A stretch of DNA of 64,000 bases, taken from Alphaproteobacteria bacterium (GTDB lineage Bacteria; Pseudomonadota; Alphaproteobacteria; CBDDJK01). A program made the position numbers and the translations under genes. The notes beneath the pieces are model-generated. The model was not told the origin of the DNA, searched no databases, and worked only from the letters and a program-made list of their open reading frames with translations. The stretch spans positions 1,046,092 to 1,110,091 of the forward strand of contig OZ245897.1 of NCBI GenBank assembly GCA_965229675.1, read 5' to 3'. Shown piece after piece: positions 18,280 through 60,833 of the stretch (positions are counted from its first letter, which is position 1; each line of letters starts with the position of its first letter).

Positions 18280-20373
18280 ATGAATCGCATGAATAATTCT
18301 GCAAAAGACAGCAAAACAAATACAGCTGAGCAATCCTCCGCCAAGCAGGAAGCACCCAAACAAGGAACAACAAGTGAAACTGAAGAATCCAAACGTGATT
18401 TTTCTGGCTTGCGGGCGGCGTTTGATAAATTGCTGAAACGGGGCAAAGACCGTGGCTATATTACATTTGATGAATTAAACCAAAACTTGCCCGAAGATAA
18501 ACTTTCGTCTGAACAGATTGAAGATACGATCACCCGCTTGAACGAGATGGGAATTTCTGTGGTCGAAAATGAAGAAGAAGAGACATCGGAAAAGGATGAT
18601 GGTACCGAGGATGAACCAGATGCCGTTGGCTTAACTGGTGATCAAGAGGCCGATGAAGTTACCGAAACCAAGGATGTAGGGCGCACGGATGATCCTGTTC
18701 GGATGTATTTACGTGATATGGGGGCAGTTGAACTGCTAACCCGCGAAGGCGAAATCGCAATTGCCAAACGCATTGAATATGGTCGGGAAGATATGATTTG
18801 CGCCCTTTGTGAAAGTCCTCTTACGATGCGTAAAATTGCTGAGTGGCATGACCAGCTTGTTGAAGGTACCTTATTATTACGTGATGTGATTGATCTTGAT
18901 GCAACCATGAATGCAGGGCCTTCCTTTGAAGATGAAGAAGAGGGAGAAGAAACAGAAGAAGGAGCCGAAGAAACACTTGTGGCTAAGGCACAAGATGCAA
19001 AACGATCCGCATTGCAAGCGGGCGATTCCAATCCTGATTTAAAATCGGATCAAGAAGATGATACGTTTGATGAAGATTCTGAAGAATTGGATGAAGATGG
19101 TTTTAATAATATGTCAATGGCGGCGATGGAAAATGTCTTAAAAGTTTCGGTGCTTGAGATGTTTGAAAATATTGCTGACACTTATAAAAAATTACAAAAA
19201 TCGCAAGAAAAACGAATTGCTGCCTTGCAAGCTGGTAAAAAAGTTGCGCCTGCGACCGAGCGTAGTTACCAGCGCAATCGCGATAGTTTGGTGCAGCTGA
19301 TGCAAGAAGTTAAATTGAATGATGCGCGCATTGAACAGCTGGTAGGGGAACTTTACACCATCAATAAAGACCTGCTTGGGCTTGAAGGTAAATTGATGCG
19401 TATGGCACTCGATTGCAAAATCTCCCGCGAGGATTTTTTAAAACATTATTATAATCGTGAACTTGATCCTAATTGGTTGGAACAAGTCTCTGGTCTATCT
19501 AAGGCTTGGGGTAAGTTTGCAACCAATAATGCAACTAAGATTGAAAAAGTTCGCACAGAAATTGCCGATCTTTCCGATCAAACACGCATGCCAATTGCTG
19601 AATTTCGTCGTATTTCTCAAGCTGTCCAGCAAGGAGAGCGAGATGCAAATGAAGCCAAGAAAGAAATGATTGAGGCAAATTTACGCCTAGTCATATCCAT
19701 TGCTAAGAAATATACCAATCGCGGCTTGCAATTCCTAGATTTGATTCAAGAGGGTAATATTGGCTTGATGAAAGCGGTTGATAAATTTGAATATCGCCGT
19801 GGGTATAAATTTTCAACCTATGCAACTTGGTGGATTCGCCAAGCCATTACGCGTTCCATCGCTGATCAAGCGCGAACCATCCGCATTCCAGTGCATATGA
19901 TTGAAACAATCAATAAGCTTGTCCGCACCAGTCGCATTATGCTGAATGAGATTGGACGGGAAGCCACGCCAGAGGAGTTAGCAACCCGCTTGCATATGCC
20001 CGTTGATAAGGTGCGTAAAGTGATGAAAATTGCCAAAGAGCCAATTTCACTTGAAACCCCAGTTGGGGATGAAGAGGATTCGCATCTTGGTGATTTTATT
20101 GAAGATCGTAATGCCTTGTTGCCATCCGATTCAGCGGCGCAATCTAATTTGCGGGAAACAACAACGCGGATTTTAGCGTCCTTAACTGCGCGCGAAGAAC
20201 GTGTATTGCGGATGCGATTCGGAATTGGGATGCAGTCAGATCATACATTGGAAGAAGTTGGACAACAATTTTCAGTTACCCGTGAGCGGATTCGCCAAAT
20301 TGAGGCCAAAGCGTTACGCAAATTAAAACATCCAACACGTTCACGTAAATTACGTAGCTTTCTTGATCATTAA
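18280..20373 (+). CDS. rpoD: RNA polymerase primary sigma factor sigma-70
   Basis: Regions 1.2-4.2 are all present, including [19 protein letters not shown] and the 4.2 [31 protein letters not shown] long acidic non-conserved region is typical of alphaproteobacteria. Confidence 0.95.
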
Positions 20374-20376
20374 ATC

Positions 20377-20832
20377 ATGATAACCCGCATTGGGGCTGAG
20401 ATTGCAACATTAGGGGTTGGTAAAAGCCCGATCGCCCCAGGCACAATGGGAAGCCTGCTTGGGTTTGTTCTTGCATTCTTATTGATGCCAAATTTATCCT
20501 TAATCCTAAACTGGGGGATAATTATTGGTGCGGCACTGATTGGCTGGTGGGCTGCCGATTGCTATCAAACTTATCATAAAAAGATTGATGCGCCCGAAGT
20601 GGTGATTGATGAATTATCTGGGTTGTGGCTTTGCTATGGTTTAATTGAATTAACCCCGATAATGATGATCGCTGGACTTATTTTGTTTCGGTTTTTTGAT
20701 ATTATTAAGCCTTGGCCGATTGGCTGGATTGATAAGCGATTGAAAAATCCGTTTGGCACGATGTTGGATGATTGGTTAGCAGGGCTTGCTTCTGCTGGTA
20801 CGCTTTTGCTTATTGAATTTTTATGGCTTTAA
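20377..20832 (+). CDS. pgpA: Phosphatidylglycerophosphatase A
   Basis: 151-aa membrane protein with the PgpA N-terminal motif GVGKSPIAPGTMGSL. Confidence 0.7.
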   Translation: MITRIGAEIATLGVGKSPIAPGTMGSLLGFVLAFLLMPNLSLILNWGIIIGAALIGWWAADCYQTYHKKIDAPEVVIDELSGLWLCYGLIELTPIMMIAGLILFRFFDIIKPWPIGWIDKRLKNPFGTMLDDWLAGLASAGTLLLIEFLWL

Positions 20833-21590
20833 TCGTCGATAATCTTGTTGGAAGCTATCAAAGCGAAGATGGTTCGCTTAAACCCGCAATAGGCTCTTTA
20901 TCATTTACGCACCAAGCGGGTAGCTTTTTAACCATTGTTGGCCCTTCTGGTTGTGGAAAATCAACGCTTTTAAATCTAATTGGTGGCTTTATAAAAGCAG
21001 AATGCGGTAGCATCCATTTTAATAACAAACAGGTTATAGCCCCCTATTCTGGTTGTGGTATTGTTTTTCAACAGGGAGATTTATTTGATTGGCTTACCTT
21101 ACGCCAGAATATTGAATTTGGATTAAGAATGGGTGGCAAATCACGCGCTGAATATCGAAAATGTTCTGATGAATGGCTTGCTAAAATTGGGCTTCAACAT
21201 GCTGCCGATCAATTACCCCCAACCTTATCGGGGGGAATGGCGCAGCGTACTGCATTGGCACGGGCATTAGCAAATGATCCGGAAATTTTATTGCTGGACG
21301 AACCATTGGGGGCATTGGATGCTTTGACACGTGAATCCATGCAACAATTATTGCTTAGTTTATGGTTGGATAGCCGCAAAACAATGGTGATGGTCACCCA
21401 TAATATTGAGGAGGCTATTTTGCTTGGTCAAAGGGTATTAATCCTCTCCCCCTCTCCTGGTATTATCATTGGTGATCTTGAAATCCCATTTTCAGATGCA
21501 GAACGCGCTAATCCCACTATCCTTTATGCCAATCCTGATTTTATCGCCTTACGGCAGAAAATTTATGGTTTATTACATAGCAATTCATAA
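20823..21590 (+). CDS. ABC transporter ATP-binding protein (NitT/TauT-like family), orphan
   Basis: Walker A GPSGCGKST, signature LSGGMAQRTALARAL, Walker B LLLDEP. No adjacent permease. Confidence 0.8.
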   Translation: MALIVDNLVGSYQSEDGSLKPAIGSLSFTHQAGSFLTIVGPSGCGKSTLLNLIGGFIKAECGSIHFNNKQVIAPYSGCGIVFQQGDLFDWLTLRQNIEFGLRMGGKSRAEYRKCSDEWLAKIGLQHAADQLPPTLSGGMAQRTALARALANDPEILLLDEPLGALDALTRESMQQLLLSLWLDSRKTMVMVTHNIEEAILLGQRVLILSPSPGIIIGDLEIPFSDAERANPTILYANPDFIALRQKIYGLLHSNS

Positions 21591-21718
21591 AAAATCATTG
21601 CTAATTTACGATAAATGTTAAGAAATATTACATGAAAAAGATGGAAATTAAATAATTAGTCCGCTATAATCCTATTTGAATTTATTACAGGATTATTCGT
21701 TCGATTTAGGGGAAGCGT

Positions 21719-22024
21719 TTGATTAGAGTATTAATAAATATGATAATTGGTATAGGCCTAGTGTCTTTTGTTGCCAATGCAAATGCAGATGATTTGCTTT
21801 ATGGGGAATATCTTGCAGGCGAATGCACAAGTTGTCATAGTCCAAGTGCTGAAAACATCCCATCATTAGAAGGGATGGAGCCTGATTATTTTATTGAAGC
21901 CATGAAAGATTATGCTTCTGGTGAACGAGAGAATCAGGTAATGCAAAATGTGGCCTTATCGTTAGGAGAGGCAGAACTACGTGCGCTTGCTTTGTGGTTT
22001 AAAACGCAAGGAGAGCAAAATTAA
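21719..22024 (+). CDS. Small secreted cytochrome c-like protein (single CxxCH)
   Basis: Signal-peptide-like N-terminus, then GECTSCHS (CxxCH), with a downstream Met (NQVMQN) as a possible axial ligand. 101 aa. Confidence 0.45.
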   Translation: MIRVLINMIIGIGLVSFVANANADDLLYGEYLAGECTSCHSPSAENIPSLEGMEPDYFIEAMKDYASGERENQVMQNVALSLGEAELRALALWFKTQGEQN

Positions 22025-22073
22025 AATCAATAATTTTAAAGCTTTTTATTAAAAACCATCTTAGGAGAAAATA

Positions 22074-22583
22074 ATGCGGCCAATGATTGAAAATGCGTTG
22101 ATCGTTGCCTTATGGTTAGAAAATGAAAGTAAAAAAGACTGTTATCGTTTGCAACCCACGCATCTCCATCTTTTGCTTTATCAAGCACAAGTAATTTACA
22201 CCTTGGAAGCGCCAGGTTCCATGTTAATGCCCGCACAATTTGCTGCCTTTAAGGATGGCCCGCGTGAACCCACCCTTTATGCGATTATGAGTGAATTGCC
22301 TTATCTTGGTGATGCGCCACCTTTAACCGATGAGCCGCAAGCATTTTTAGATCGCTTTTGGTCAAAATTTGGGCATAAACAGGCTAAAACCCTATTAAAA
22401 GAAATTCATAATCATCCGCCATTTTCTAAAAGCCTTAAGCGCGGGGAAGGCTCAATCATTCCATTGGATACGATTATTGATTATAGCAAACAATATAAAC
22501 AGCGTAAGGATTTTATCAAAGTTGCCGATGGTCGCCATCTTATGCGATGGACACCACAACGCCATAAAGCGGCGCAACGATAA
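22074..22583 (+). CDS. Panacea-domain (DUF4065 / SocA-like antitoxin-type) protein
   Basis: The N-terminal half matches the DUF4065 pattern: ...HLHLLLYQAQVIYTLEAPGSMLMPAQFAAFKDGPREPTLY (K/H-L-x-K-L-L-Y-x-A-Q...W..GPV.P..Y). Confidence 0.55.
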   Translation: MRPMIENALIVALWLENESKKDCYRLQPTHLHLLLYQAQVIYTLEAPGSMLMPAQFAAFKDGPREPTLYAIMSELPYLGDAPPLTDEPQAFLDRFWSKFGHKQAKTLLKEIHNHPPFSKSLKRGEGSIIPLDTIIDYSKQYKQRKDFIKVADGRHLMRWTPQRHKAAQR

Positions 22584-22589
22584 AAATTT

Positions 22590-23780
22590 TCAGTCTTGAA
22601 CAGTTAATGTTTTTTGAAATAAGGCGAATATTGCCGCAATCAAAAGAATAATCCCACCTGCAATTAATCCAGTTGATAAATCCGCACTATAATCTGAAAG
22701 GTAACCTGCGCCGATTGGTCCTATCGTCTGGCCAATTGAAAAAGCGGTTGTATAAAGTGCAATTGCACCGCCCCATTGTGCCTTAGGTAGATTTTTCTTA
22801 CTAAATGCTGTTACTGCAGTTGGCGCAATAAGAAAAGATAGGCCAAATAAAATCGCCGAGACCATTACCCCAATCCATCCATAAAAAAATATGGGAAATA
22901 AGGTGCCAACTGCGGTTGCCAGCGAAGAAGCCGCCAAGGGAAACCCATTATTATAGCGTTGAAGCACATGCCGCCATAAGAAAGGGGCAATCATAACTGC
23001 CCCGCCGATTAATCCCCAGCATAGCACAACCATCGCCACAGGTGCGCCATTTTGTTGCAACCAAGCAATTACAAAAGTCATATAGATAATATAACCAATC
23101 GCGAAAATGAAATATCCCACTAAAGAGGGAAAAAGACGCCTTATTGGTAATCCAAATTGCGTAGATTGTGTTTGTTTTGCCGCAAAATAATTATAAAAAA
23201 ACAAACATAATAACGTTAAGCCTAGGCTGATTGAACCCAAAATAATCCATGCAGTTCCCCAAGCAGCATCACCAATAATTGCAAACATTGGGGGTAATAT
23301 CAGTGCGGTTGCTAGCATACCAGCCCCAACGCCACCAAAATAAATTGCAATGGCTAACGCATTTTTTAAAGCATGTTCTGACCAAAATGCCGCAGCAATC
23401 ACTGCCCCTGAAATAAATACAGCCGCACCGCCTATGCCAGATAATATTCGTGTTAAATTTAATAGGTAAAAATCATTGGTTAAACCTGAACCTAGTAATG
23501 AAAGCGAGGTTAATAGCATCCCAGCTAAAAATAATTTCACAGGTTGCACATGATAACTAAATAACAAAGCCAATACTGCGCCGATTAAATATCCAAGTGC
23601 GTTGGTTGTATTAATCCATCCTGCTAACGCATAAGTCCAGCCAAGCTCTGTTTTCATGGAAGGTAGGATCAAAGCATAGCCAAAGCGCGCAAAGCCATTA
23701 CCAACCGCAGGGCCAAGTGCCAGAATGATCAAAGGAATCCATGAACGCATTTTAAATTTTTTTAAGATAAACAGGAACAA
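22590..23780 (-). CDS. MFS-family transporter (probable efflux/export permease)
   Basis: 396 aa with about 12 predicted TM helices and glycine-rich loops typical of MFS. Transcribed divergently from the carrier-protein cluster together with the TetR gene. Confidence 0.7.
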   Translation of the reverse strand: MFLFILKKFKMRSWIPLIILALGPAVGNGFARFGYALILPSMKTELGWTYALAGWINTTNALGYLIGAVLALLFSYHVQPVKLFLAGMLLTSLSLLGSGLTNDFYLLNLTRILSGIGGAAVFISGAVIAAAFWSEHALKNALAIAIYFGGVGAGMLATALILPPMFAIIGDAAWGTAWIILGSISLGLTLLCLFFYNYFAAKQTQSTQFGLPIRRLFPSLVGYFIFAIGYIIYMTFVIAWLQQNGAPVAMVVLCWGLIGGAVMIAPFLWRHVLQRYNNGFPLAASSLATAVGTLFPIFFYGWIGVMVSAILFGLSFLIAPTAVTAFSKKNLPKAQWGGAIALYTTAFSIGQTIGPIGAGYLSDYSADLSTGLIAGGIILLIAAIFALFQKTLTVQD

Positions 23781-23795
23781 GAATATATTTGATTT

Positions 23796-24473
23796 TCAAG
23801 CATGATCAACAGTTTCAAAAGCGGTAGGTGCTTTAACAATCGAAAGCGCAGATTGAAGGGCATAATCAATTGGTTCAGGCGCTTGCTGAATATAAGATTC
23901 AATAATTGCGCCATCCCATAGCATAAGAATTTGTTGGGCTTTAACTTCGGCGTTTTTTGCGTTCATATATTGTAGAAGCGTTTGTTCAATTTCTCGTTTG
24001 ATCCATAATTTGTGATTACGGACAAGCTGATGCACTTCACTATCAGGATCGCTCACTTGAACGGCAGAATTCATAAACATACACCCCCTAAAATTATCTT
24101 CTTTTCTAAGGCAAAAAACAATATCAAATAAGGTTTCAATACCCAATACAGGATCATTTTTATCCTTAAAAGCTTCTTTGACCATTTCACGCCGCTTATT
24201 CAGATAACGTTCCAGCACCGCAATGGTTAAATCATGCTTATTTTTAAAAATATTATAAAGGGACATTCTGGATACATTTGCGGTTTCGATAATTTCTGTA
24301 ATTCCAACCGAAGGAATACCCTTTTGATACATTAATTTAGAGGCCGCATCAATTAACCGTTCCCTTGCCCCGCTTTGATGTTTGATAACCCTTTGATTTT
24401 TATCGTTAGGTGTATTTTGTTTAAGCGTATCTTTTTGATCAGCCTCATGCTTTTTCTTTTGTTTTTTCATCAT
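23796..24473 (-). CDS. TetR-family transcriptional regulator
   Basis: TetR_N HTH: RERLIDAASKLMYQKGIPSVGITEIIETANVSRMSLYNIFKNKHDL, with a Lys-rich N-terminal tail. Confidence 0.75.
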   Translation of the reverse strand: MMKKQKKKHEADQKDTLKQNTPNDKNQRVIKHQSGARERLIDAASKLMYQKGIPSVGITEIIETANVSRMSLYNIFKNKHDLTIAVLERYLNKRREMVKEAFKDKNDPVLGIETLFDIVFCLRKEDNFRGCMFMNSAVQVSDPDSEVHQLVRNHKLWIKREIEQTLLQYMNAKNAEVKAQQILMLWDGAIIESYIQQAPEPIDYALQSALSIVKAPTAFETVDHA

Positions 24474-24587
24474 TGCAGTTCCATAAAAATTACACCTAAT
24501 CCGTTTAAATAAAAAAAATATAGTTTTTTAGTAATTTGTTGTTTTTGGATGCTTGACTCCCATTAAGCAGACCGATATAAAATTAGG

Positions 24588-24603
24588 TAGACCGATCAGT
24601 CTA
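24588..24603. promoter_or_regulatory. Candidate TetR operator: imperfect palindrome TAGACCGATCAGTCTA, with an upstream direct half-site repeat AGACCGAT at 24569-24576
   Basis: A 16-bp inverted repeat with one mismatch lies in the 275-bp AT-rich divergent intergenic region between the TetR gene and the ACP-like gene. Confidence 0.3.
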
Positions 24604-24748
24604 ATTTTATTAATGACGCTAACTTTTGTCAAGTTAAGTTTTTATGTATTAAGCTGTTATTTAAATATTTTAACAATTTAATGTCTTAATTTGGCTAGTT
24701 GAAATTAAAAACGTTTAAAACTTTATTTATTGTGAAGAGAGCCCAACC

Positions 24749-25030
24749 ATGGACGATGCTATTAAAAAAATTCAATCCTATATTGAAGCAAAAAATCCAG
24801 AATATACTAATCTTTCTGTGAATACCGATATTATTGAAAATCGCTTGATCGACTCCCTCCAATTTGTCGAGTTTGTTCTATATATTGAAGAAGTTGCTGA
24901 AGTCACAATTGATATGGAACTTGCTGATATTGAAGATTTTCGTAGCCTTAATAACCTTACTGCTTTTATCGATCGCTTACGACAAGAAGAAAGCGCTACA
25001 GCCCCCACCCTAAGCGAGGTTGAAGCTTAA
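24749..25030 (+). CDS. Acyl/peptidyl carrier protein (PP-binding, ACP-like)
   Basis: 93 aa, acidic. RLIDSLQFVEFVLYIEE matches the ACP phosphopantetheine-attachment region (DSL, with Ser as the presumed 4'-PP site). Confidence 0.7.
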   Translation: MDDAIKKIQSYIEAKNPEYTNLSVNTDIIENRLIDSLQFVEFVLYIEEVAEVTIDMELADIEDFRSLNNLTAFIDRLRQEESATAPTLSEVEA

Positions 25031-25484
25031 AAAAATGCAATTTGCCGAGGATTATAAAAAGGGTGATATTTATTACTTGGGTAGTTATCAGCTTGAAGCA
25101 GAAGAAATGATTACATTTGCAACCCAATATGATCCACAACCTTACCATTTAAGCGAGGAAGAAGGTGCAAAATCTCCTTTTAATGGTCTGATTGCAAGCG
25201 GTTGGAATATTGCTGGTATATGGATGAAGCTTTATGTCACCCATATGCTGGACGGCGCGAAGGTTTTTGGCTCCCCAGGTGTGGACGAAGTTCGGTTTAA
25301 ACAACCTGTGCGCCCAGGTCAAATCCTAGAAGGTAAGGTTGAGATTTTAGACCGTTTGCCTTCTTTTTCAGATAAAAGCATTATGATCATCCGTAAATAT
25401 GGAACGTTGAGCGTTGCGGGCGATGACCGTCCTGTTTTCAGCCTTATTCTTAATAGTCGCTTTGCAAAAAGGACATATTACTGA
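25020..25484 (+). CDS. MaoC-like hot-dog fold protein (dehydratase/hydratase or thioesterase-like)
   Basis: 154 aa. It has the MaoC signature region FNGLIASGWNIAG...PVRPGQILEG. Confidence 0.65.
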   Translation: MKLKKMQFAEDYKKGDIYYLGSYQLEAEEMITFATQYDPQPYHLSEEEGAKSPFNGLIASGWNIAGIWMKLYVTHMLDGAKVFGSPGVDEVRFKQPVRPGQILEGKVEILDRLPSFSDKSIMIIRKYGTLSVAGDDRPVFSLILNSRFAKRTYY

Positions 25485-26350
25485 TGAAGGCTGTTTCTTA
25501 TACGGCACAATGGACTGCAGCAATCAGGGCGCGTGAAAGCACACTTGCCGAAGGGCGTTTGTTCAATGATCAGCTGGCAGAAGAGCTTGCACAACCAGAT
25601 GGTTTTCGCTTACTTGAAAAATATAAAGGTGGAGGTGTACAAGAATTTGTGATCATTCGTACCCGCTATTTCGATGACGCGATTCAGGCAGCATTAGATC
25701 ATGATCAATTTCGTCAGATTGTTTTTATTGCAGCTGGCATGGATACCAGAGCTTTTCGTCTAAACTGGCCAGATGGTGCAGTGCTTTATGAGATTGATCA
25801 TGAAGGTTTACTTGAAGAAAAGCAAAAACGCCTGTCAAAATTGGGGGCATCGCCAAACGTAAAACGGATTGAGGTCGCAGCCGATTTTTCACAGCCATGG
25901 ATTAATTCTCTTATCAATGCAGGCTTCTTACGTGATCAAAAAACTTTATGGGTTGCTGAAGGTTTATTATTTTTTCTTGAACAAAAGGAAGTTATCGACC
26001 TGCTTGAAGTAACGGGTGGGGCTTCTGCGCCTCATAGTCGATTGTTAACGGATATGAATAATAATATTTTGTTGCAAAGCCCGATGAGTCGATTTTTCAT
26101 GGAAACACTTAAAAGAGATGGGACACCATGGCGATTTGGTACCAATGCCCCCAGTGAATTTTTAGGCAGCCATCATTGGCAGGTGATTGAGCTTAAAGAG
26201 CCAGGGCAAACCAAGGCAGGGCTTACGCGATGGCCCTATGAAACCCACGATAGTGCAATAAAAAATGTGCCAAGAAGCTGGCTTATTCAAGCGCAGATTG
26301 ATCACAACCGAACATTATTTAATAATGAAAGAGAGGGTATATGCGCATAG
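25484..26350 (+). CDS. SAM-dependent methyltransferase of the LCM/TcmP (putative O-/carboxyl-methyltransferase) family
   Basis: TRYFDD...FIAAGMDTRAFRL...YEIDHEG...WVAEGLLFFL match the PF04072 Leu-carboxyl methyltransferase-like family. Confidence 0.7.
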   Translation: MKAVSYTAQWTAAIRARESTLAEGRLFNDQLAEELAQPDGFRLLEKYKGGGVQEFVIIRTRYFDDAIQAALDHDQFRQIVFIAAGMDTRAFRLNWPDGAVLYEIDHEGLLEEKQKRLSKLGASPNVKRIEVAADFSQPWINSLINAGFLRDQKTLWVAEGLLFFLEQKEVIDLLEVTGGASAPHSRLLTDMNNNILLQSPMSRFFMETLKRDGTPWRFGTNAPSEFLGSHHWQVIELKEPGQTKAGLTRWPYETHDSAIKNVPRSWLIQAQIDHNRTLFNNEREGICA

Positions 26351-27201
26351 TCGGAGGGTGGCTTGATGTTCAGCATCGCCTTGAAAAAACGCTTGATACT
26401 TTGTTTGAGCTACCCACGCATCAACATATTCACTTTGATTCCATTTTATCGATTGAGGAATTAGATAAGATTGATTATGCGCGTAACTTCCCGCATCTGA
26501 CTTGCCTTGGTTGCGCCTTGGCAGATAAAACCCATCAAGGGCTTTCGGATAATGAACTTAGCTTGAAATCCGCCGCCAGAATAGGAAATACAAGATTTGC
26601 GCTTTTACCAGCGACTTGTTTTAAAGTCTATCTTTCACTTGAAGGATTGGAGCTTAACCATAGCCATCATCTTGGCTGTAGTGCTTCATGTTTTCGCAAT
26701 GAAGACAAGGCGTTGGATGACTATCGTGGTCTTAATTTTACGATGAAAGAGTTTGTTTGCGTTGGTAATCAGATGGATGCAAAACGCCATATTGAACAAG
26801 GCATAGCACGCGTTAGTTTGTTATTTTAACGGCTTGGTATTCCGTTTAATATTGAAAATGCCATGGATCCTTTCTTTGATAATAAAGCTTCTCAGGCGAT
26901 TCTTTCAAAGCTTTCCCCAACAAAACGGGAATTCATATTTGATGGCCATGCCGTGGCTTCAGCGAACTTTCACCGCAATTTCTTTGGTGAAAAATTATCA
27001 ATTACCCTTAATGGTGAAGCAGTTAATACAAGCTGCGTTGCTTTTGGTATTGAACGATGGCTAGCAATGCTCCGCCAGATTTTTGTCAAACCAGAAAATG
27101 CGCTTTATGCCTTGAACGAATGTATGGTTGATTACCATATTGAAACCGTTCTTGGCACCTCTTCACGACAAGAAAAAGTTACAGAAGGAATAACAAAATG
27201 A
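26341..27201 (+). pseudogene. Class II aminoacyl-tRNA-synthetase (SerRS)-like amino acid:[carrier protein] ligase, interrupted by a single in-frame TAA at 26827-26829
   Basis: Both halves are in the same frame. The upstream half has SerRS motif 2 (SCFRNEDKALDDYRGLNFTMKEFVCVG, compare [26 protein letters not shown]). The downstream half has motif 3 (ITLNGEAVNTSCVAFGIERWLAML, compare TLNGSGLAVGRTLVA). There is no N-terminal tRNA-binding arm, and the total is about 285 aa. Confidence 0.6.
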
Positions 27202-28067
27202 TTGAAGCTAAACGGATGGATCGCCTGATTTCTCTTTCACATTCACATAAGGAATCATGTGATATTTACACACAGTTTGATTGGCCAGAAGCCCTTGCAG
27301 TTGATCGTTTGTGGTGCGATGAAGACCTGCTAACAACATATGACACAGAAATTCATGCACAATTAACCGATGAACAAAAATATCATTTAAGCAAGTGGGA
27401 GGCGATTAATTTTTGTAGCCTTAATGTTCATGGGATTAAAACGGTTTTGGAATTTGTTAGCCGCATTATCTATAGCCGCCGCTATGAACCCATTTCAGAA
27501 TATTTGCATTTATTTTTGTCCGAAGAAAATGATCATATGTGGTTTTTTGCAAAATTCTGTTTGATGTATGGTGGTAAGCTTTATCCTGCTTTCGCCTTTC
27601 CTGTTGGCAAGCCAAATAATCCTGTTGAAAATGACCTATATATGTTCGCAAGCACATTGATTTTTGAGGAGTTTGTCGATTTTTATAATCATCGTGTTGG
27701 CAAAAATAAGGAGGTTCACCCTGTTATTCAAGCGATTAATCATCACCACCACATTGATGAATCGCGTCATGTGTCTTTTGGCAGAGAGATTGTTAAAAGC
27801 CTATTTGATGAGCTATGTGAACAAAATGAAGACCCAGAACAACGGGAACGCATTAGCAAAACCGTTAAAGGGTTAATTGATCATTTTACGGGGCTAATGT
27901 ATAATGCCCGTGCTTATAAAGATGCAGATATTGCGCTTGGTTTAGGGTTTAAAACAGCGGCCGCCCTTCGTAATCACCTTCGTAATGATCAGCAACGCAT
28001 TCCCCATCATCATCGCTGGTTTAATCGTACTGAACGTTATTTTGAACGGATTGGACTATTTTCATAA
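27198..28067 (+). CDS. AurF-like diiron (ferritin-like) oxygenase / N-oxygenase family protein
   Basis: 289 aa with spaced carboxylate/His motifs EENDH, IFEEF...NH and IDESRH (E/DExxH), as in PF11583 p-aminobenzoate N-oxygenase AurF/CmlI. His-rich segments HHHH are also present. Confidence 0.55.
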   Translation: MIEAKRMDRLISLSHSHKESCDIYTQFDWPEALAVDRLWCDEDLLTTYDTEIHAQLTDEQKYHLSKWEAINFCSLNVHGIKTVLEFVSRIIYSRRYEPISEYLHLFLSEENDHMWFFAKFCLMYGGKLYPAFAFPVGKPNNPVENDLYMFASTLIFEEFVDFYNHRVGKNKEVHPVIQAINHHHHIDESRHVSFGREIVKSLFDELCEQNEDPEQRERISKTVKGLIDHFTGLMYNARAYKDADIALGLGFKTAAALRNHLRNDQQRIPHHHRWFNRTERYFERIGLFS

Positions 28068-28120
28068 AATAAGTTAGATTATGTGTGCGAAAGTTTTTCT
28101 GCACAAGGCATTAACGATTT

Positions 28121-28555
28121 ATGAAAATTACGATTGATAAAGTTTCGTCATCAGAAGCGTTTCAAAAATGTATGGATATCCGTATTGCCGTTTTTGTTGA
28201 AGAACAAAAGGTACCTATGGAAGAAGAAGTAGATGGAAAAGATAGTGCTTGCGATCATTATTTATTAAGCACTGATGATTCTCCCATTGGTACAGCACGG
28301 ATATTTTTAACAGGCAATATTGCTAAAATTGGACGGGTTGCGATAGTAAAAGATTATCGGGGAAAAGGATTGGGGCGTGCCTTAATGCAACATATGATTA
28401 CTGATATTCGCACAAACCATGAAATAGAAAAAATAAAATTAAGTTCGCAGACCTATGCCATCCCGTTTTATGAAGCGTTAGGATTTATGGTTTGCAGCGA
28501 TGAATATATGGACGCTAAAATTCCCCATAAGGATATGGAATTTATCATATGTTAA
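28121..28555 (+). CDS. GNAT-family N-acyltransferase
   Basis: 144 aa. The acetyl-CoA binding motif VAIVKDYRGKGLGRALM (Q/RxxGxG/A) is present. Confidence 0.7.
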   Translation: MKITIDKVSSSEAFQKCMDIRIAVFVEEQKVPMEEEVDGKDSACDHYLLSTDDSPIGTARIFLTGNIAKIGRVAIVKDYRGKGLGRALMQHMITDIRTNHEIEKIKLSSQTYAIPFYEALGFMVCSDEYMDAKIPHKDMEFIIC

Positions 28556-36104: not shown

Positions 36105-37109
36105 TTAATTTATCATTAGTGATAGACCAATTGGACAATGATCGGACAATCTTGATAAAATATTAGGGTCAAGATCAGTAAAATATTCTTTAAAAGACCC
36201 CAGTTCTACCAAGGCGGCAGCTGGTTCATTCATGACAAAATGATCGATGAAATAAGCATATTTGCTATCATGGCACAGCGATTTCATAAAACGATTAGGG
36301 CGCACCAACCCAGCAAGATAGCCTTTGGCCTCATGATCAAACAGGCTAGGCCACATCCAATTGGTAGGTGTTTTTTCTAGTGAATGGGATAAATCAGGGG
36401 CGGGTTCAATATCAAAGCGTCGATTAAAATCTCCAACGATTACAAATGGTTTACCCTTATGAATGCGTTGATGCATCCATTGTTTTAACCCTTTTATTTG
36501 TGCCTTTAATGTAGCGCAATTTTTGTTATTGGCACGCGATAATGGTATTTGGTGGCAATTTGATTTTAAATGCACGCCCAACAGATCAACTTCAAATTGA
36601 TTAAGGCTTAATGATAAAGATAACCCGCCACGCAAATAACCATTAATATTTAAACTTGGCAAAGGCTTAATTTGGCTGATTGGTACCAACCAAGCTTTGC
36701 GTAAAATTGCCTGTTTCATATTACGACCATCCGCAGAAATATGAATATCATATTGATTTGCAAAAATTCTTTTTAAAGCTTCAACAGAGCTAACTTCTTG
36801 AATAAATAGTAAATCTCCTTCCAATTTAGCCGCATAGTCTGCAAGCAGGTTTAAATCTTCATTTGTCCGCCTGCCAGCAGTAACCGTACCATCCTCATTT
36901 TGTTTTGGTGTAGAGAGATGTTGCAAATTCCAACTAATAATCTTTAAAACAGGCGGTATCTTATTGATTTTATTATGATTATCAAAAGGATCATCTGAAT
37001 TTGGATAGGGTGTAGCGAATCCATCCCATCTAATCGCCAAGCCTACCCCCAGCAAGATCAAAATGAATATTCCAATAAAAATAATGAATTTTCTATTATC
37101 AAACACCAT
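36105..37109 (-). CDS. Endonuclease/exonuclease/phosphatase (EEP)-family protein with an N-terminal membrane anchor
   Basis: N-terminal TM FIIFIGIFILILLGVGLAI. The EEP-like features are SWNLQHL near the N-terminus and SDHCP near the C-terminus. Confidence 0.55.
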   Translation of the reverse strand: MVFDNRKFIIFIGIFILILLGVGLAIRWDGFATPYPNSDDPFDNHNKINKIPPVLKIISWNLQHLSTPKQNEDGTVTAGRRTNEDLNLLADYAAKLEGDLLFIQEVSSVEALKRIFANQYDIHISADGRNMKQAILRKAWLVPISQIKPLPSLNINGYLRGGLSLSLSLNQFEVDLLGVHLKSNCHQIPLSRANNKNCATLKAQIKGLKQWMHQRIHKGKPFVIVGDFNRRFDIEPAPDLSHSLEKTPTNWMWPSLFDHEAKGYLAGLVRPNRFMKSLCHDSKYAYFIDHFVMNEPAAALVELGSFKEYFTDLDPNILSRLSDHCPIGLSLMIN

Positions 37110-40920: not shown

Positions 40921-43900
40921 TTAAAGTACACGTTCACGATAGGTTTTCATAAAATCTTCAAAGGAAGAACGTGCGGTAAGCTTTTGGACATAATCTTCAA
41001 TCTCAGCCTTTTGTTGCAAATCACGTGGCGCAAAATCTCTGCTGGTTAGATAATCGAAAACATCAGCTATTTCTGTACGACTCATCGAAGGGCCATAGAC
41101 TTCTCTTAGATAATCAAGCCCACGCCGATCATTATCTAATTTAAGTGCAACCGCCCAATCCACAACATATTGCGCCCGCTCTTCAGGTAGCGATTGCCGC
41201 GCCCGTTGTGGTGGTTTTCCAGCTAAGCGTTGAAGATTTTTTGCAACTTCTCCCCATTGTCGATTCTTCCAGTAAATATCACGGCGGAGTAAATTCGCTT
41301 CATCGCTAATATCTCCTGCTAATAACTTTAATGCTTCTTCAGGACGATTAAGTTCAAACTGTGCTTGTGCGCGCAATCTACGCCGATCATCATAAAGCGC
41401 ACCTTGAGAGGTAATATCTTCGGTTTTATCCAAAGCTTCCAATGTTTTATCGGGCTTACTTTCAAGCAACCGAACAAGTGCTAATTTTGTGCCTGTTTCA
41501 ATGCGCTCTTCCCCTTCAAGGCGATGGTCAATTTGATAATCCAACAATGTGGCGGCATGATCCAACAAATCGACCTGAATAAGTCGTTGTGACAGGTAAT
41601 TGATCATCTGATCCCCTTCTTCATCAGGCGGTGTTAGCTCCCGATAAGCATCAAAAAATGCAAGGGCTTGAGCGGCAGGCATTTCATTTGCTTTACGGTT
41701 CAAAAATAAATCCCGAAAGGTCGATTGCATACGATTACCAATAACTTCAACCATCGGATTATCTGGAAAATAGCTTAACGCTGTCTTATAAACATCAAAT
41801 CCTTCAAAATATAGGCCATTATTAATGTACAGCTTTCCTAATTGATCAAGCACGGCCAATTCAAATTCATTACCGCGCCATTGATAGCGTAACTGTTCAA
41901 GAATTTCTAAGGCTTCTTGGTTAGAGATTGTCTCTTGCCTTAAATTTAACCCCACATAAGCAAATGCAGCACGTGCTGCATTTTTACGATCATTGCCTGC
42001 CATTAATTCCTGCCAATATTGATTGGCAAGGGCATAATCAGAACGTGACGCAACCATTCGCCCTTTATTATATTGTAAATCGCCAAGCACGCCACGTGGC
42101 AATAGGTCTTTTTCACGATCCAATTGGTCGATGATTGCCGTTGCCATTCGAACATCGCGATTTTCCATGGCAGCTTCAATCGCCATGATCCCCAATTTTC
42201 CTTTTAAGGGTTGTGGATAATTTCGTAACTGATTGACTGCAAGGCGAAAATATTCCAATGCCCTTGCGCTATTGCCACGTTCGGCAAGTAACGCAGCATT
42301 CCATAAAATTCCTTCGCGATATTGTCCAACTTCACGGTCACCTAAATCTTGTTCAGCTTCATCAAGCCGTCCTGCCATGAAATTTGCAACACCACGCAAG
42401 GCGCGTACAGGTACAGATTCAATCAATTTTGGGTGATCTCGTTCTATTAAATCTAAAACCCCTAAGGCTTCTTGTCCCAAATCATGTGCTACATAAAACC
42501 GTGCCAAATAAAGCCGTGCGCGGGCAATATCTGCTTTAGACATTTCTGTTATATTGTTTAATAAGCGTTGCTTGTTTGTATAAAAATCTTCCGCAGGCCC
42601 AAGCGCCCATTCTTTGAAATCAAACAGATTTGCAGTTTTAAAACTGATATTAGATTCAGTGGCATTTTCAGGTGAAACGCCAGATAGCTGTAAACCGTTG
42701 GGGGCAGAAATGCGAAAGCCATCTTCGGCCTTTGTGAAAACCATACGATCCGTTAAAGTTTCAATGGCCAAACCTTGCGCAGAAGGTAAAAGATTAAATT
42801 CAGGATAGCGTCGTAGCCCATTAACGCCAAGCCCTGCTTCGCGGAATGTAATAATATTAAGTTCATCGCCTGTAACTGGATCAATAACAGAAATATGCTC
42901 TCCTGGTTCTTGGCTAGCTAAAAACATATGGCTACCAAGGTCTGCATTAACGCTAATATCAATCGGCAATTGGCTTGCGGGCATAATGGGCCCAAGGCGT
43001 AAATCAACCTGCCATAGGCCGCCCTCTCTTTTTAATGATGGGTTGATCCTTGTATCGGGAACATGCAAACGAAAAAGGGTTTTTTGTTCAATCGGCATTT
43101 GTTCAATATCGATAATCACATCTTGATTAATACCGCCTAAGGGTTCCATATCCATGGGTGTTGAATCGTCAAATACCAGCCATATATATTCACCGCGACG
43201 AAAAACGGCACCGCCCACTGTTGTTGGCCAATCAAAGCGCATATTCACCAAGGTAGGGCCAATAACATTTTCTGGTTTATCTGTTTCGCTTTCTTCGTTT
43301 GACAGGAGATTAGCGTCTTTCCCTTCGGCAGCAACTAAAATTTCGCGTGCTTGATCTTTGGTCATGAATTTTGTGTCTAATGTCCCAGCTAAAACAGCGC
43401 GTGCCGCTTCAATTTCAGTTTGACTATATTGCCGTGTTCCTCTTTTTGTTTTTCTTGCCAAGGAAATTTCGGGGGGCAGTAAACGAATAATAATTCGTGC
43501 GCTTTGTGATTTTGTTTCTATTTCATGATGGCGTGTCATATTGAATAGAATAGAGGTTTTAGAACTCTCCGATGTGATAACAGGCGCACGTAACCAATCA
43601 GGCAATTTTTGTTTAAGTTCTTCACGGTCAATTTCTGCACCAGCTGAGAAGGATAAATCTAAATTACCTTGACGATTAACCGCATCAAAACTGACTCGTA
43701 CTGGCCAATCAAAGATAAGATCGGTTACCCCATCTTGATCTTGATCAACCATAACATCAACTTGATAGAATACATTTCCTTCTTGATCACGCTTCGTGCG
43801 TTTTAAACGATCAAGCGGCGATATAACGGGGGCTGCTTGTTCGGCAATCGGTATTCTGGAAGGTTCAATACGGTTGCTTTGTGCTTGTTGATTGTTTTCT

Positions 43901-44457
43901 ACTGGTTCAAATCCAGGGGATGAAGGCCGCAACGAATTTGTTTGTTCAATAAATTCTTCTTCTAATTCAAAAGATTGTGGTTCAGAATTTACGGATTGAA
44001 ACCCGTCATCCTCTTCATTTACATTCTCTGATGTTGTCCCCCCGCCATCTGTTGCCAAATTAGAATTAGACGCTTCATCAGCCGCATATAATTCCAAGAT
44101 GACGCGATTGGAACGATTGAATGCCAATATTTCTACATTACGCTTAAGAATAATGACAACATTTTTACCATCTTCTGTGATCCGTCCCCCTGAAATATAG
44201 CTTGGTGCTAATCGACCAATCGGGGCAATATTAGCAATTAACGGTTCAGAAAATTTAACCGTTATTTTTTGCCCACTTAATTGCGCTTCATAATTTACTT
44301 GTTTTGGCCAATCAAACGAAACTTGTGCTTTTGCAGGCTGTTCCCACGCACGAACAAGTACGGGCGTTTGCGCATTCGCAACCGAGGAAAATAATAAAAT
44401 AAATAATAGCCCTGCTAGAAAAGCTACAAACCGTATGTTATGTTGATTAATCATCAT
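40921..44457 (-). CDS. Large (1178 aa) secreted protein with an acidic low-complexity region and a C-terminal TPR-like helical repeat region; function unknown
   Basis: Signal peptide FVAFLAGLLFILLFSSVANA. An E/D/S/N-rich linker follows. The C-terminal ~500 aa are rich in helical repeat-like segments (ARLYLARFYVAHDLGQEALGVL...). Confidence 0.45.
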   Translation of the reverse strand: MMINQHNIRFVAFLAGLLFILLFSSVANAQTPVLVRAWEQPAKAQVSFDWPKQVNYEAQLSGQKITVKFSEPLIANIAPIGRLAPSYISGGRITEDGKNVVIILKRNVEILAFNRSNRVILELYAADEASNSNLATDGGGTTSENVNEEDDGFQSVNSEPQSFELEEEFIEQTNSLRPSSPGFEPVENNQQAQSNRIEPSRIPIAEQAAPVISPLDRLKRTKRDQEGNVFYQVDVMVDQDQDGVTDLIFDWPVRVSFDAVNRQGNLDLSFSAGAEIDREELKQKLPDWLRAPVITSESSKTSILFNMTRHHEIETKSQSARIIIRLLPPEISLARKTKRGTRQYSQTEIEAARAVLAGTLDTKFMTKDQAREILVAAEGKDANLLSNEESETDKPENVIGPTLVNMRFDWPTTVGGAVFRRGEYIWLVFDDSTPMDMEPLGGINQDVIIDIEQMPIEQKTLFRLHVPDTRINPSLKREGGLWQVDLRLGPIMPASQLPIDISVNADLGSHMFLASQEPGEHISVIDPVTGDELNIITFREAGLGVNGLRRYPEFNLLPSAQGLAIETLTDRMVFTKAEDGFRISAPNGLQLSGVSPENATESNISFKTANLFDFKEWALGPAEDFYTNKQRLLNNITEMSKADIARARLYLARFYVAHDLGQEALGVLDLIERDHPKLIESVPVRALRGVANFMAGRLDEAEQDLGDREVGQYREGILWNAALLAERGNSARALEYFRLAVNQLRNYPQPLKGKLGIMAIEAAMENRDVRMATAIIDQLDREKDLLPRGVLGDLQYNKGRMVASRSDYALANQYWQELMAGNDRKNAARAAFAYVGLNLRQETISNQEALEILEQLRYQWRGNEFELAVLDQLGKLYINNGLYFEGFDVYKTALSYFPDNPMVEVIGNRMQSTFRDLFLNRKANEMPAAQALAFFDAYRELTPPDEEGDQMINYLSQRLIQVDLLDHAATLLDYQIDHRLEGEERIETGTKLALVRLLESKPDKTLEALDKTEDITSQGALYDDRRRLRAQAQFELNRPEEALKLLAGDISDEANLLRRDIYWKNRQWGEVAKNLQRLAGKPPQRARQSLPEERAQYVVDWAVALKLDNDRRGLDYLREVYGPSMSRTEIADVFDYLTSRDFAPRDLQQKAEIEDYVQKLTARSSFEDFMKTYRERVL

Positions 44458-59456: not shown

Positions 59457-60833
59457 ATGTATTATAAAAATAAAATTATTATTCAACTTTTTTCTATTTT
59501 ACTGGGTATAGTGACGGCTTCATTTATACTATTCCCTGAAAGACTGTCTTTTATAACAATCAGCTTTAATGGGTTTTTACTAGCAATTATATTTTCAATT
59601 CATTTGGTCTTCCATGGAGGAAGAAGAACGAGTTTTGGAATTTTTCATCGGCTAAATCATATTTTTAAAATACGTTTAGCATTGTTTCCGTTAATATGTT
59701 TTTTTGCTCCTTATTTGTTTGTTGTTTTGGGTGTACATGTCTTTTTATTAGACAATCTTGAACAAATACATCAGTATTTTATTCAAAAATTTCCTTTCGT
59801 TAGAAATTTAATTTCAGGAGGGGTTATTGCTTACTTATGCGGTTATTATCTTCGGTTCACGAAAACCTTAAATATTTTCCTGTGTATTGTTTGTGTAACG
59901 ATATTTATTATATCAATCGTTGATTTAACTCACTTGTTTTTAATTGAGCCTACATGGCTTGTTACCTATATCAATGATTTTAAACTAGCTTATACTTGGG
60001 CAAGCTATGCTCAGCCCATAATTTATGGAATCGCATTAATAATAGCAGGAATAGGATTGCTCTATTTTTATTATATGATTATAAATACCAATTATAATTT
60101 TAAACGTTTAAAGAAAAGTTTATTGTTAATCGTTATTTTTATGTTCCTGATTATATCAATAAATTCTATAATCTTGGGATCAAGGTCAATATGGTTAGGG
60201 TTTATTATCGCTATTTTTACGTTTTTCTTAGTGAATAAAAAATATGGCCATGCAGTATTTGTATCTCTTTTTTATGGAATTTTATTTTTAATTGTAACGA
60301 ATTTTTTCGACTTAAGCTTAGCAAATATATATAGCGATTCACAATTACTAAAAATGCATAATAATAACCCGCTTTCTGATTCAGGTATAGAAAAATTTTT
60401 TACAGATTTGTTAAACGAGCGGTTTATATTTATAATGAGTGGGTTGAATATGTGGCTAAACAACCCTTTTTTTGGAGTTGGCATTGAAAATTTTTCAATT
60501 TATTCAAGGGATTATACGCCTAATGCTATGTTAGATAAATTAGTAATTGACGAATTATATTGGCAACCACACAATATGTTCGTTAAATTATTGGCTGAAA
60601 GTGGTATCATAGGATTTGGTGGATTTATTTTAATGTTAGGATGGATTATTATCCAATCTTTCAAACAATATTGTTTCGGCAATCAAAAGCAACGCGCACG
60701 AATAGCCGTTGGAATCGCAACTCTTTTGCCCTTATTTTCAATAGCCATGTTACATGATGTTCATGACGAAAGAATATGGTGGTGTGCTCTTGGATTATTG
60801 CTGGCTTCAACAAACGGTTCATACAAAACATGA
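59457..60833 (+). CDS. O-antigen ligase / Wzy-like polymerase family membrane protein
   Basis: More than 10 TM helices and a Wzy_C-like periplasmic loop (YWQPHNMFVKLLAESGIIGFGGFIL). Very AT-rich codon usage. Confidence 0.5.
   Translation: MYYKNKIIIQLFSILLGIVTASFILFPERLSFITISFNGFLLAIIFSIHLVFHGGRRTSFGIFHRLNHIFKIRLALFPLICFFAPYLFVVLGVHVFLLDNLEQIHQYFIQKFPFVRNLISGGVIAYLCGYYLRFTKTLNIFLCIVCVTIFIISIVDLTHLFLIEPTWLVTYINDFKLAYTWASYAQPIIYGIALIIAGIGLLYFYYMIINTNYNFKRLKKSLLLIVIFMFLIISINSIILGSRSIWLGFIIAIFTFFLVNKKYGHAVFVSLFYGILFLIVTNFFDLSLANIYSDSQLLKMHNNNPLSDSGIEKFFTDLLNERFIFIMSGLNMWLNNPFFGVGIENFSIYSRDYTPNAMLDKLVIDELYWQPHNMFVKLLAESGIIGFGGFILMLGWIIIQSFKQYCFGNQKQRARIAVGIATLLPLFSIAMLHDVHDERIWWCALGLLLASTNGSYKT

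Follow-up and report, generated by a model that had tools for sequence, protein, structure and literature searches.

Two small genes on the same strand of a 64,000-nucleotide (nt) stretch of an alphaproteobacterial chromosome (contig OZ245897.1, positions 1,046,092 to 1,110,091; hereafter the window) raise the question of whether a Panacea-domain (DUF4065) gene and the gene in front of it are horizontally acquired DNA, or the remains of a degraded toxin-antitoxin or phage-defence system, as had been proposed in a first-pass annotation made from the sequence alone. Both open reading frames (ORFs) are real, and the peptide strings quoted from them are present in the translations.

21719 to 22024, plus strand: cytochrome c gene, encoding a precursor of 101 amino acids (aa), TTG start.
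22074 to 22583, plus strand: gene X, 169 aa, encoding a cytoplasmic Panacea-superfamily protein, ATG start.

The explanation that we favour, with a probability of roughly 55%, is that the two genes are native to the chromosome and unrelated in function, one for a periplasmic cytochrome c and one for a solo Panacea-fold protein, X, that binds another protein. X lies in a chromosomal clade without a toxin partner, and the locus is therefore unlikely to be a toxin-antitoxin pair or a foreign islet.

Scored directly, X falls under the thresholds of the Panacea models. With PF13274 it gave 17.4 bits (E 0.0085, residues 56–116) against a gathering score of 25.7, a match that is not significant by the Pfam threshold. 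The NCBIfam SocA model (NF047745) gave 13.6 bits over residues 12–73 against a cutoff of 190, the match being limited to model positions 7–71; the X homologue of metagenomic locus L121 reached 27.9 bits. A word-indexed homologue search with X or with the 101-aa protein returned only the query itself. However, phrog_1281 matches X over residues 1–142 (1e-10), and an exhaustive phmmer search of 1.84 billion representatives (E<=1e-3) yielded a set of 138 proteins, X included, in which PF13274 was matched at E<=0.01 by 48 of 125 aligned relatives (best 7.3e-17). About 30 of 120 hits of a profile search with the X family carried a precomputed PF13274 assignment, and their NCBI names included "Panacea domain-containing protein" and "DUF4065 domain-containing protein".

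The fold was examined in an AlphaFold2 model built from the family alignment (predicted local distance difference test, pLDDT, 95.8; predicted template-modelling score, pTM, 0.86). The model places the Panacea core at residues ~1–130, with helices at 8–21, 28–45 (central), 86–99, 104–112 and 115–122 and strands at 56–59, 62–64 and 127–129. In the published description of PanA, with Vibrio harveyi numbering, helix alpha2 is central, the sheet has three strands, beta2 carries G62-P63-V64 and beta3 falls close to residue 131 (PMC8832971); both the predicted topology of X and the position of its Gly-Pro pair match this description.

22257 to 22265, plus strand: codons G62-P63-R64, the site of the Panacea "GPV" signature in beta2.

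Residue 64 of X is an arginine, and most of the subfamily reads GP[ILVM]EP at this site. Foldseek against viral models (BFVD) retrieved phage proteins of ~147 aa with template-modelling scores of 0.62–0.78, one of them named a SocA-like Panacea protein; no solved structure with the X fold was found for comparison. Taken together, phrog_1281, the phmmer relatives that match PF13274, the named members and the agreement in fold establish the homology. X is therefore a divergent member of the Panacea superfamily, and the assignment made in the first-pass annotation stands on relatives and fold, but not on the direct scores.

X belongs to a coherent chromosomal alphaproteobacterial subfamily with a C-terminal hairpin of its own. 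Members share the Panacea core, a linker that varies in length and, at the C-terminus, a G-x(3-7)-W-x-P motif, which is found in 105 of the 138 phmmer-set proteins (X counted), those lacking it being mostly fragments.

22530 to 22556, plus strand: codons G153-R-H-L-M-R-W159-T-P161, the hallmark motif G-x(3-7)-W-x-P.

In the closest 14 sequences W159 and P161 never vary and G153 hardly does. The modelled C-terminal extension consists of a helix at 131–145 followed by strands at 147–149 and 155–157, which form a two-strand hairpin (pLDDT 81–91 in this region). Such a conserved, clade-specific motif suggests a maintained function of its own. Named members come from Aestuariispira, Hwanghaeella, Caenispirillum and Magnetovibrio; most are Rhodospirillales and others are unclassified Alphaproteobacteria. 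The sole label from outside the class, Actinomycetota, belongs to one metagenome-assembled genome that looks mislabelled.

The neighbours of X relatives were examined in 95 X-family loci, and no recognisable toxin was found next to X in any of them, nor was a homologue of the window cytochrome. Different settings surround the two relatives nearest to X (44% and 41% identity): one lies between PPDK and mannitol dehydrogenase genes, the other between genes for a glucosaminidase-domain protein and a 431-aa protein. Two further relatives lie on contigs too short to show a gene context. In the locus with the glucosaminidase-domain protein (L085:1929-5010) the 5' neighbour has 371 aa with a C-terminal glucosaminidase domain of the FlgJ muramidase type, and the 3' neighbour of 431 aa had no family match. 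In the cultured species Aestuariispira insulae and Hwanghaeella grinnelliae, X is solo and divergent from coxG, which belongs to a CO-dehydrogenase cluster, and is followed by CitMHS or a nitroreductase gene; an ABC exporter, a deacetylase and DUF192 lie farther along solo-X loci (L175:7136-10138, L176:6503-9583, L094:4130-5600). Flanks of the coxG, CitMHS and DUF192 type recur in metagenomic X loci, which indicates a conserved chromosomal position for solo X, and this conserved synteny suggests that the clade is vertically inherited. Among rpoD-anchored loci from 80 species, all of them distant (identity <=63%), none had the order pgpA, cytochrome c, X, MFS.

Kurata et al. (2022) defined PanAT toxin-antitoxin pairs by a gap of <=100 nt and conservation in >=2 species (PMC8832971). 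The 49-nt gap between the cytochrome gene and X lies within the first limit; the pair itself occurred in no genome other than that of the window and of a 98%-identical strain, short of the conservation asked for. In that study ~1,268 of 2,281 DUF4065 proteins were in toxin-antitoxin-like loci and ~44% were outside them (PMC8832971), so that solo DUF4065 proteins are common. The intergenic gaps around the pair (128, 49 and 6 nt) are too short to hold a decayed toxin gene. No defence family was reported by PADLOC, which gave a chance-level JAB match only. Thus, the statement in the first-pass annotation that X has no toxin partner beside it was confirmed and extends to the family loci; its proposal of a degraded toxin-antitoxin or defence remnant is not supported, given the small gaps, the PADLOC result and the solo position of the clade in conserved synteny in cultured Rhodospirillales.

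The neighbouring 101-aa protein was annotated as having a signal peptide and a single CxxCH, and both are present.

21719 to 21787, plus strand: signal peptide, residues 1–23 (MIR, a 15-residue hydrophobic core and an ANA-DD cleavage site), as read from the sequence.
21824 to 21838, plus strand: haem motif C36-T-S-C-H40.
21941 to 21943, plus strand: putative sixth ligand Met75, within "VMQ".

The mature protein has ~78 aa, and its haem motif is the only CxxCH among window ORFs of >=80 aa. A phmmer search of the PDB gave 5n1t_B as the best match (E 2e-11, residues 14–91), next came cytochrome c4 6q2u_A (2e-10), then the haem subunits 3vrd_A and 1fcd_C of flavocytochrome c and cytochromes c552–c554. 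Both the CxxCH and the VMQ methionine align with those of solved cytochromes (5n1t_B, 6q2u_A, 8uf3_A). The Pfam cytochrome models scored below gathering (PF13442, 17.3 against 27; PF00034, 15.9 against 21.3). By sequence, then, the protein is a bona fide class I cytochrome c with one haem, exported by the Sec route and with probable His40/Met75 haem ligation, and the signal peptide implies that it is exported and matured in the periplasm.

With the small haem subunit of flavocytochrome c and the c4 and c552 domains it shares the class I fold (judged from sequence), a CxxCH close to the start of the mature chain, a Met ligand that lies within a conserved "VMQ" and a precursor of ~100 aa with a signal peptide. 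The best match, 5n1t, is the flavocytochrome c sulfide dehydrogenase of Thioalkalivibrio paradoxus, crystallised with its cytochrome subunit and CopC. In contrast to such an enzyme, no FccB gene adjoins the 101-aa gene: the gene 3' of the cytochrome is X, which is not the FccAB arrangement. No FccB-like flavoprotein or respiratory partner was seen in the genes within ~6 kb on either side and in 30 further window ORFs, about ten ORFs being unscanned. Cytochrome c4 differs in having two haem domains against one here. The first-pass annotation had held that a bona fide cytochrome with respiratory partners elsewhere would speak against its proposal. This was largely borne out, in that the protein matches class I cytochromes, but partners were not located within the 64 kb.

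The arrangement of the two genes was considered as a possible transcription unit.

21642 to 21670, plus strand: candidate promoter TGGAAA-17 nt-TATAAT, 10/12 consensus, ~49 nt 5' of the cytochrome c start.
21709 to 21713, plus strand: Shine-Dalgarno-like GGGGA, 5 nt ahead of the cytochrome c TTG, as read from the sequence.
22025 to 22073, plus strand: spacer between the cytochrome c gene and X, 49 nt, 18% GC.

The same 101-aa product was picked by the gene caller in the sister-strain locus (L001). An AGGAG lies at 22063–22067, 6 nt ahead of the X start codon, and no terminator-like hairpin was found between the two genes or after X. The promoter is a consensus match only: its region has 11 promoter-like sites where shuffled sequence gives 5.0 +/- 2.3, an excess to be expected of an AT-rich spacer. 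The cytochrome gene and X are probably co-transcribed, with 21642 to 21670 as the candidate promoter of the bicistron; the adjacency of the two genes, including this probable co-transcription, is circumstantial. Beyond X comes a convergent MFS_4 transporter gene, whose stop codon lies 6 nt past the end of X, in agreement with the convergent MFS gene of the first-pass annotation, and a TetR regulator gene follows. On the 5' side are M16 peptidase genes, rpoD, pgpA and an orphan TauB/NrtD-like ABC ATPase gene.

We examined the base composition of the locus, which had been described as an AT-rich islet with very AT-rich flanking intergenic DNA. The GC content of the window is 41.6%, and 58 ORF calls average 41.5 +/- 3.3%; against these the cytochrome gene has 38.9% (z -0.8) and X 42.2% (z +0.2), and the synonymous codon usage of X is above the gene average (z +1.7). 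Thirteen window spacers have a mean GC of 31.0 +/- 5.9%, and the spacer 5' of the cytochrome gene, at 26.6%, falls inside this norm. The repeat search around the pair gave weak, chance-level matches only, with no convincing direct or inverted repeats and no mobile-element scars. No tRNA lies near the pair, an Rfam scan having given two tRNAs only. Otherwise the window consists of core chromosome, with purF, fumarase, DAHP synthase, accD, trpAB, ybeY, phoH, miaB, phosphoglucomutase, ETF-QO, trkA, PBP2/rodA, pyruvate dehydrogenase and topA genes. Furthermore, the pair is kept in the 98%-identical metagenomic strain, where X is identical, the cytochrome carries two substitutions, both non-synonymous, and the spacer between the genes has small indels and substitutions; the differences in the two genes (0 and 2) are too few for an estimate of selection. 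With native composition, no convincing repeats, no tRNA nearby and the pair present in the sister strain, neither composition nor structure points to recent acquisition. Spacers rich in AT are usual for this window and the locus is probably no foreign islet, so the islet description does not hold; horizontal acquisition is likewise opposed by the chromosomal clade with its conserved synteny.

Elsewhere in the window, the Wzy_C O-antigen ligase gene at 59457–60833 has 29.4% GC, ~3.7 standard deviations below the mean, and is the sole strongly deviant gene; two glycosyltransferase genes of 36–38% GC lie 3' of it. This region is more plausible as acquired DNA than the locus of the pair.

Under the favoured explanation the cytochrome would be an independent soluble periplasmic electron carrier of the c4, c552 or flavocytochrome-c-subunit type. 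X, by analogy with PanA, would act as a cytoplasmic Panacea-type module that binds another protein directly, through a putative surface made up of the central helix alpha2, the G62-P63 strand and strand beta3. Its C-terminal hairpin is predicted to be an ordered element after helix 131–145, conserved across the clade. As a rule the subfamily has no toxin partner, and it is apparently vertically inherited, and the partner of X in this genome would be encoded away from it.

Several points weigh against this explanation. Protein binding by X is an analogy with PanA; moreover, the Arg in X where the GPV of PanA has a hydrophobic residue means that the binding mode may differ. Vertical inheritance is suggested by synteny in a few genomes, not by phylogeny. 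The window covers 64 kb of a 2.47-Mb genome, and a toxin or partner may lie distally. The 49-nt spacing without a terminator is also compatible with a functional operon.

X and PanA (PMC8832971) share a homologous domain, the predicted topology, Gly-Pro at 62–63, a size of ~150–190 aa, a cytoplasmic location and phage relatives. X differs in being sub-threshold in Pfam, in reading GPR for GPV and in its extra C-terminal G-x-W-x-P hairpin; its clade has no adjoining toxin and a conserved synteny, whereas PanA is mobile and swaps partners. One rival explanation is that X is an orphan antitoxin, left over from a PanAT module that lost its toxin and kept to neutralise phage or plasmid toxins or a distal genomic one. 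Many Panacea proteins are validated antitoxins with frequent exchange of toxin partners (PMC8832971), and membership of that superfamily, together with the match to the phage family phrog_1281, is consistent with such an origin. We nevertheless consider it unlikely: the gaps beside X are too small for a toxin pseudogene, the entire clade is without toxins in conserved chromosomal synteny, the clade-specific C-terminal motif suggests a function of its own, composition is native and PADLOC was negative.

A different lead on clade function came from marine relatives. Eighty metagenomic loci (L095–L174) were fetched with a five-member subgroup alignment and their neighbours clustered. Many Rhodospirillales-like marine loci have a same-strand block that runs from an alpha/beta hydrolase gene through genes for a ~143-aa protein and a FlgE-like protein to X, which is last (L121:3008-5540, L113:14-3799, L126:2829-5549, L090:3047-5561). 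The ~143-aa protein had no family match and ends in "AI-AYE-NA...LGTS-S-L", in which the "AYE-N" part looks like a rod-type helix. In 53 loci with >=1.5 kb upstream, both partners were present in 28, the ~143-aa protein only in 7, the axial protein only in 3 and neither in 15; at least one partner therefore occurs in 38 of the 53 informative loci.

The axial protein takes two forms. One, a FlgE-family hook protein of ~430 aa that includes D1 and D2, scores 226–255 bits with TIGR03506, whose cutoff is 70 (L113:1794-3095, L126:3575-4894). The other, "mini-FlgE", has 106–130 aa and consists only of the N- and C-terminal D0 segments of FlgE, Flg_bb_rod and Flg_bbr_C (L110:4480-4800, L121:4554-4907, L154:4561-4881); it is either an unusual reduction of the hook protein or a distinct small axial-like protein. 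A literature search found no paper that ties DUF4065 to flagellar genes, and the dataset of Kurata et al. has no such partner (PMC8832971). By neighbour clustering and hidden Markov models (HMMs), the window and the loci of the closest relatives encode neither the ~143-aa nor the FlgE-like partner. The FlgE-like association is thus a lead on the clade and not a property of the locus studied here. It allows the tentative and rather doubtful proposal that the X clade is a domesticated, non-antitoxin Panacea fold which ancestrally bound or chaperoned flagellar axial-type proteins, the partners having moved or been lost in the window lineage while X was kept.

Could X instead be a SocA-like type VI proteolytic adaptor, delivering a distal substrate to ClpXP with the C-terminal motif as a protease dock? 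SocA of Caulobacter crescentus, a type VI antitoxin and ClpXP adaptor for SocB, resembles X in its alphaproteobacterial origin, in its length and in a weak N-terminal profile similarity, and is itself a Panacea protein (PMC8832971); the weak N-terminal matches of X and of the L121 homologue to the SocA model fit this picture, and the succession of core, variable linker and C-terminal motif may recall tethering adaptors. However, those scores are far under the 190-bit cutoff and confined to model positions 7–71. SocA acts with SocB, whereas the neighbours of X are a cytochrome c and an MFS transporter gene, none of them SocB-like by annotation, and the C-terminal motif is modelled in a hairpin rather than a free tail. 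We regard an adaptor role as improbable. SocA orthology of X was rejected at 13.6 bits against 190.

Least credible of all, and in our view very improbable, is a true two-gene module in which the 101-aa protein is a toxic or membrane-active PanT-like partner, or X controls or chaperones the pre-cytochrome, since the shared strand, the 49-nt gap (<=100 nt, PMC8832971), the missing terminator, the toxin-first order known in PanAT, the existence of PanT that are small membrane proteins (PMC8832971) and the presence of the pair in two strains are set against homology of the 101-aa protein to solved c-type cytochromes over its mature length with haem ligands aligned, an exported cytochrome beside a cytoplasmic X, a related cytochrome in 0 of 95 X-family loci and different neighbours beside the closest relatives of X. 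An exported c-type cytochrome, as the partner appears from its sequence, speaks against a growth-inhibiting PanT role, and the cytochrome as a PanT toxin was rejected.

Two functionally unrelated native genes thus remain our preferred explanation, and catalogues should list the locus neither as a toxin-antitoxin system or defence remnant nor as a genomic islet. Solo DUF4065 or "phage-associated protein" (GepA-like) genes, including phrog_1281, are likewise stand-alone; the X clade differs from them in being chromosomal, alphaproteobacterial by its named members and equipped with its own C-terminal motif. Because solo Panacea proteins are known to be common and members of the clade are already annotated as Panacea or DUF4065, X adds a member to a known kind. 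Roughly two in five DUF4065 proteins lie outside toxin-antitoxin-like loci, and the X clade, with its syntenic position on the chromosome, its distinct C-terminal motif and its members in cultured Rhodospirillales, is a defined test case for a non-antitoxin Panacea role. The recurrent FlgE-like neighbour of X provides a concrete hypothesis on the function of the clade.

Comparison of the window with its sister strain provided further observations. Over window positions 18280–26350 the window and L001 diverge in a mosaic fashion: 82 of the 2094 nt of rpoD differ (69 synonymous and 9 non-synonymous codon changes), and the LCM methyltransferase gene is 3.5% divergent with 14 non-synonymous changes. 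The segment 20377–25484 is near-identical between the strains (<=0.15% per gene, setting aside the cytochrome c gene and the spacer 3' of it); amid such divergence, this suggests recent recombination there. The sister strain departs from the window at 28544, directly past an acetyltransferase gene (L001:13498-17539), and, where the window has ybeY-phoH-miaB, encodes an integrase, a Toprim primase and proteins of the HTH_17 and AAA_25 families, with no tRNA at the junction; this insert is a strain-specific integrative element.

Other genes of the window were also noted. The orphan ABC ATPase at 20823–21590 (TauB/NrtD/SsuB-like, under equivalog cutoffs) overlaps pgpA by 10 nt, and no permease or binding-protein gene adjoins it. 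At 24749–28555, after a 275-nt spacer of 26.5% GC, lies a small biosynthetic-looking operon encoding a PP-binding_2 carrier protein, a MaoC dehydratase, an LCM-type methyltransferase, a class II aminoacyl-tRNA-synthetase-like ligase, an AurF-like di-iron oxygenase and a GNAT acetyltransferase. Two long ORFs on the minus strand, 40921–44457 (1178 aa) and 36105–37109 (334 aa), had no Pfam match at E<=1e-5.

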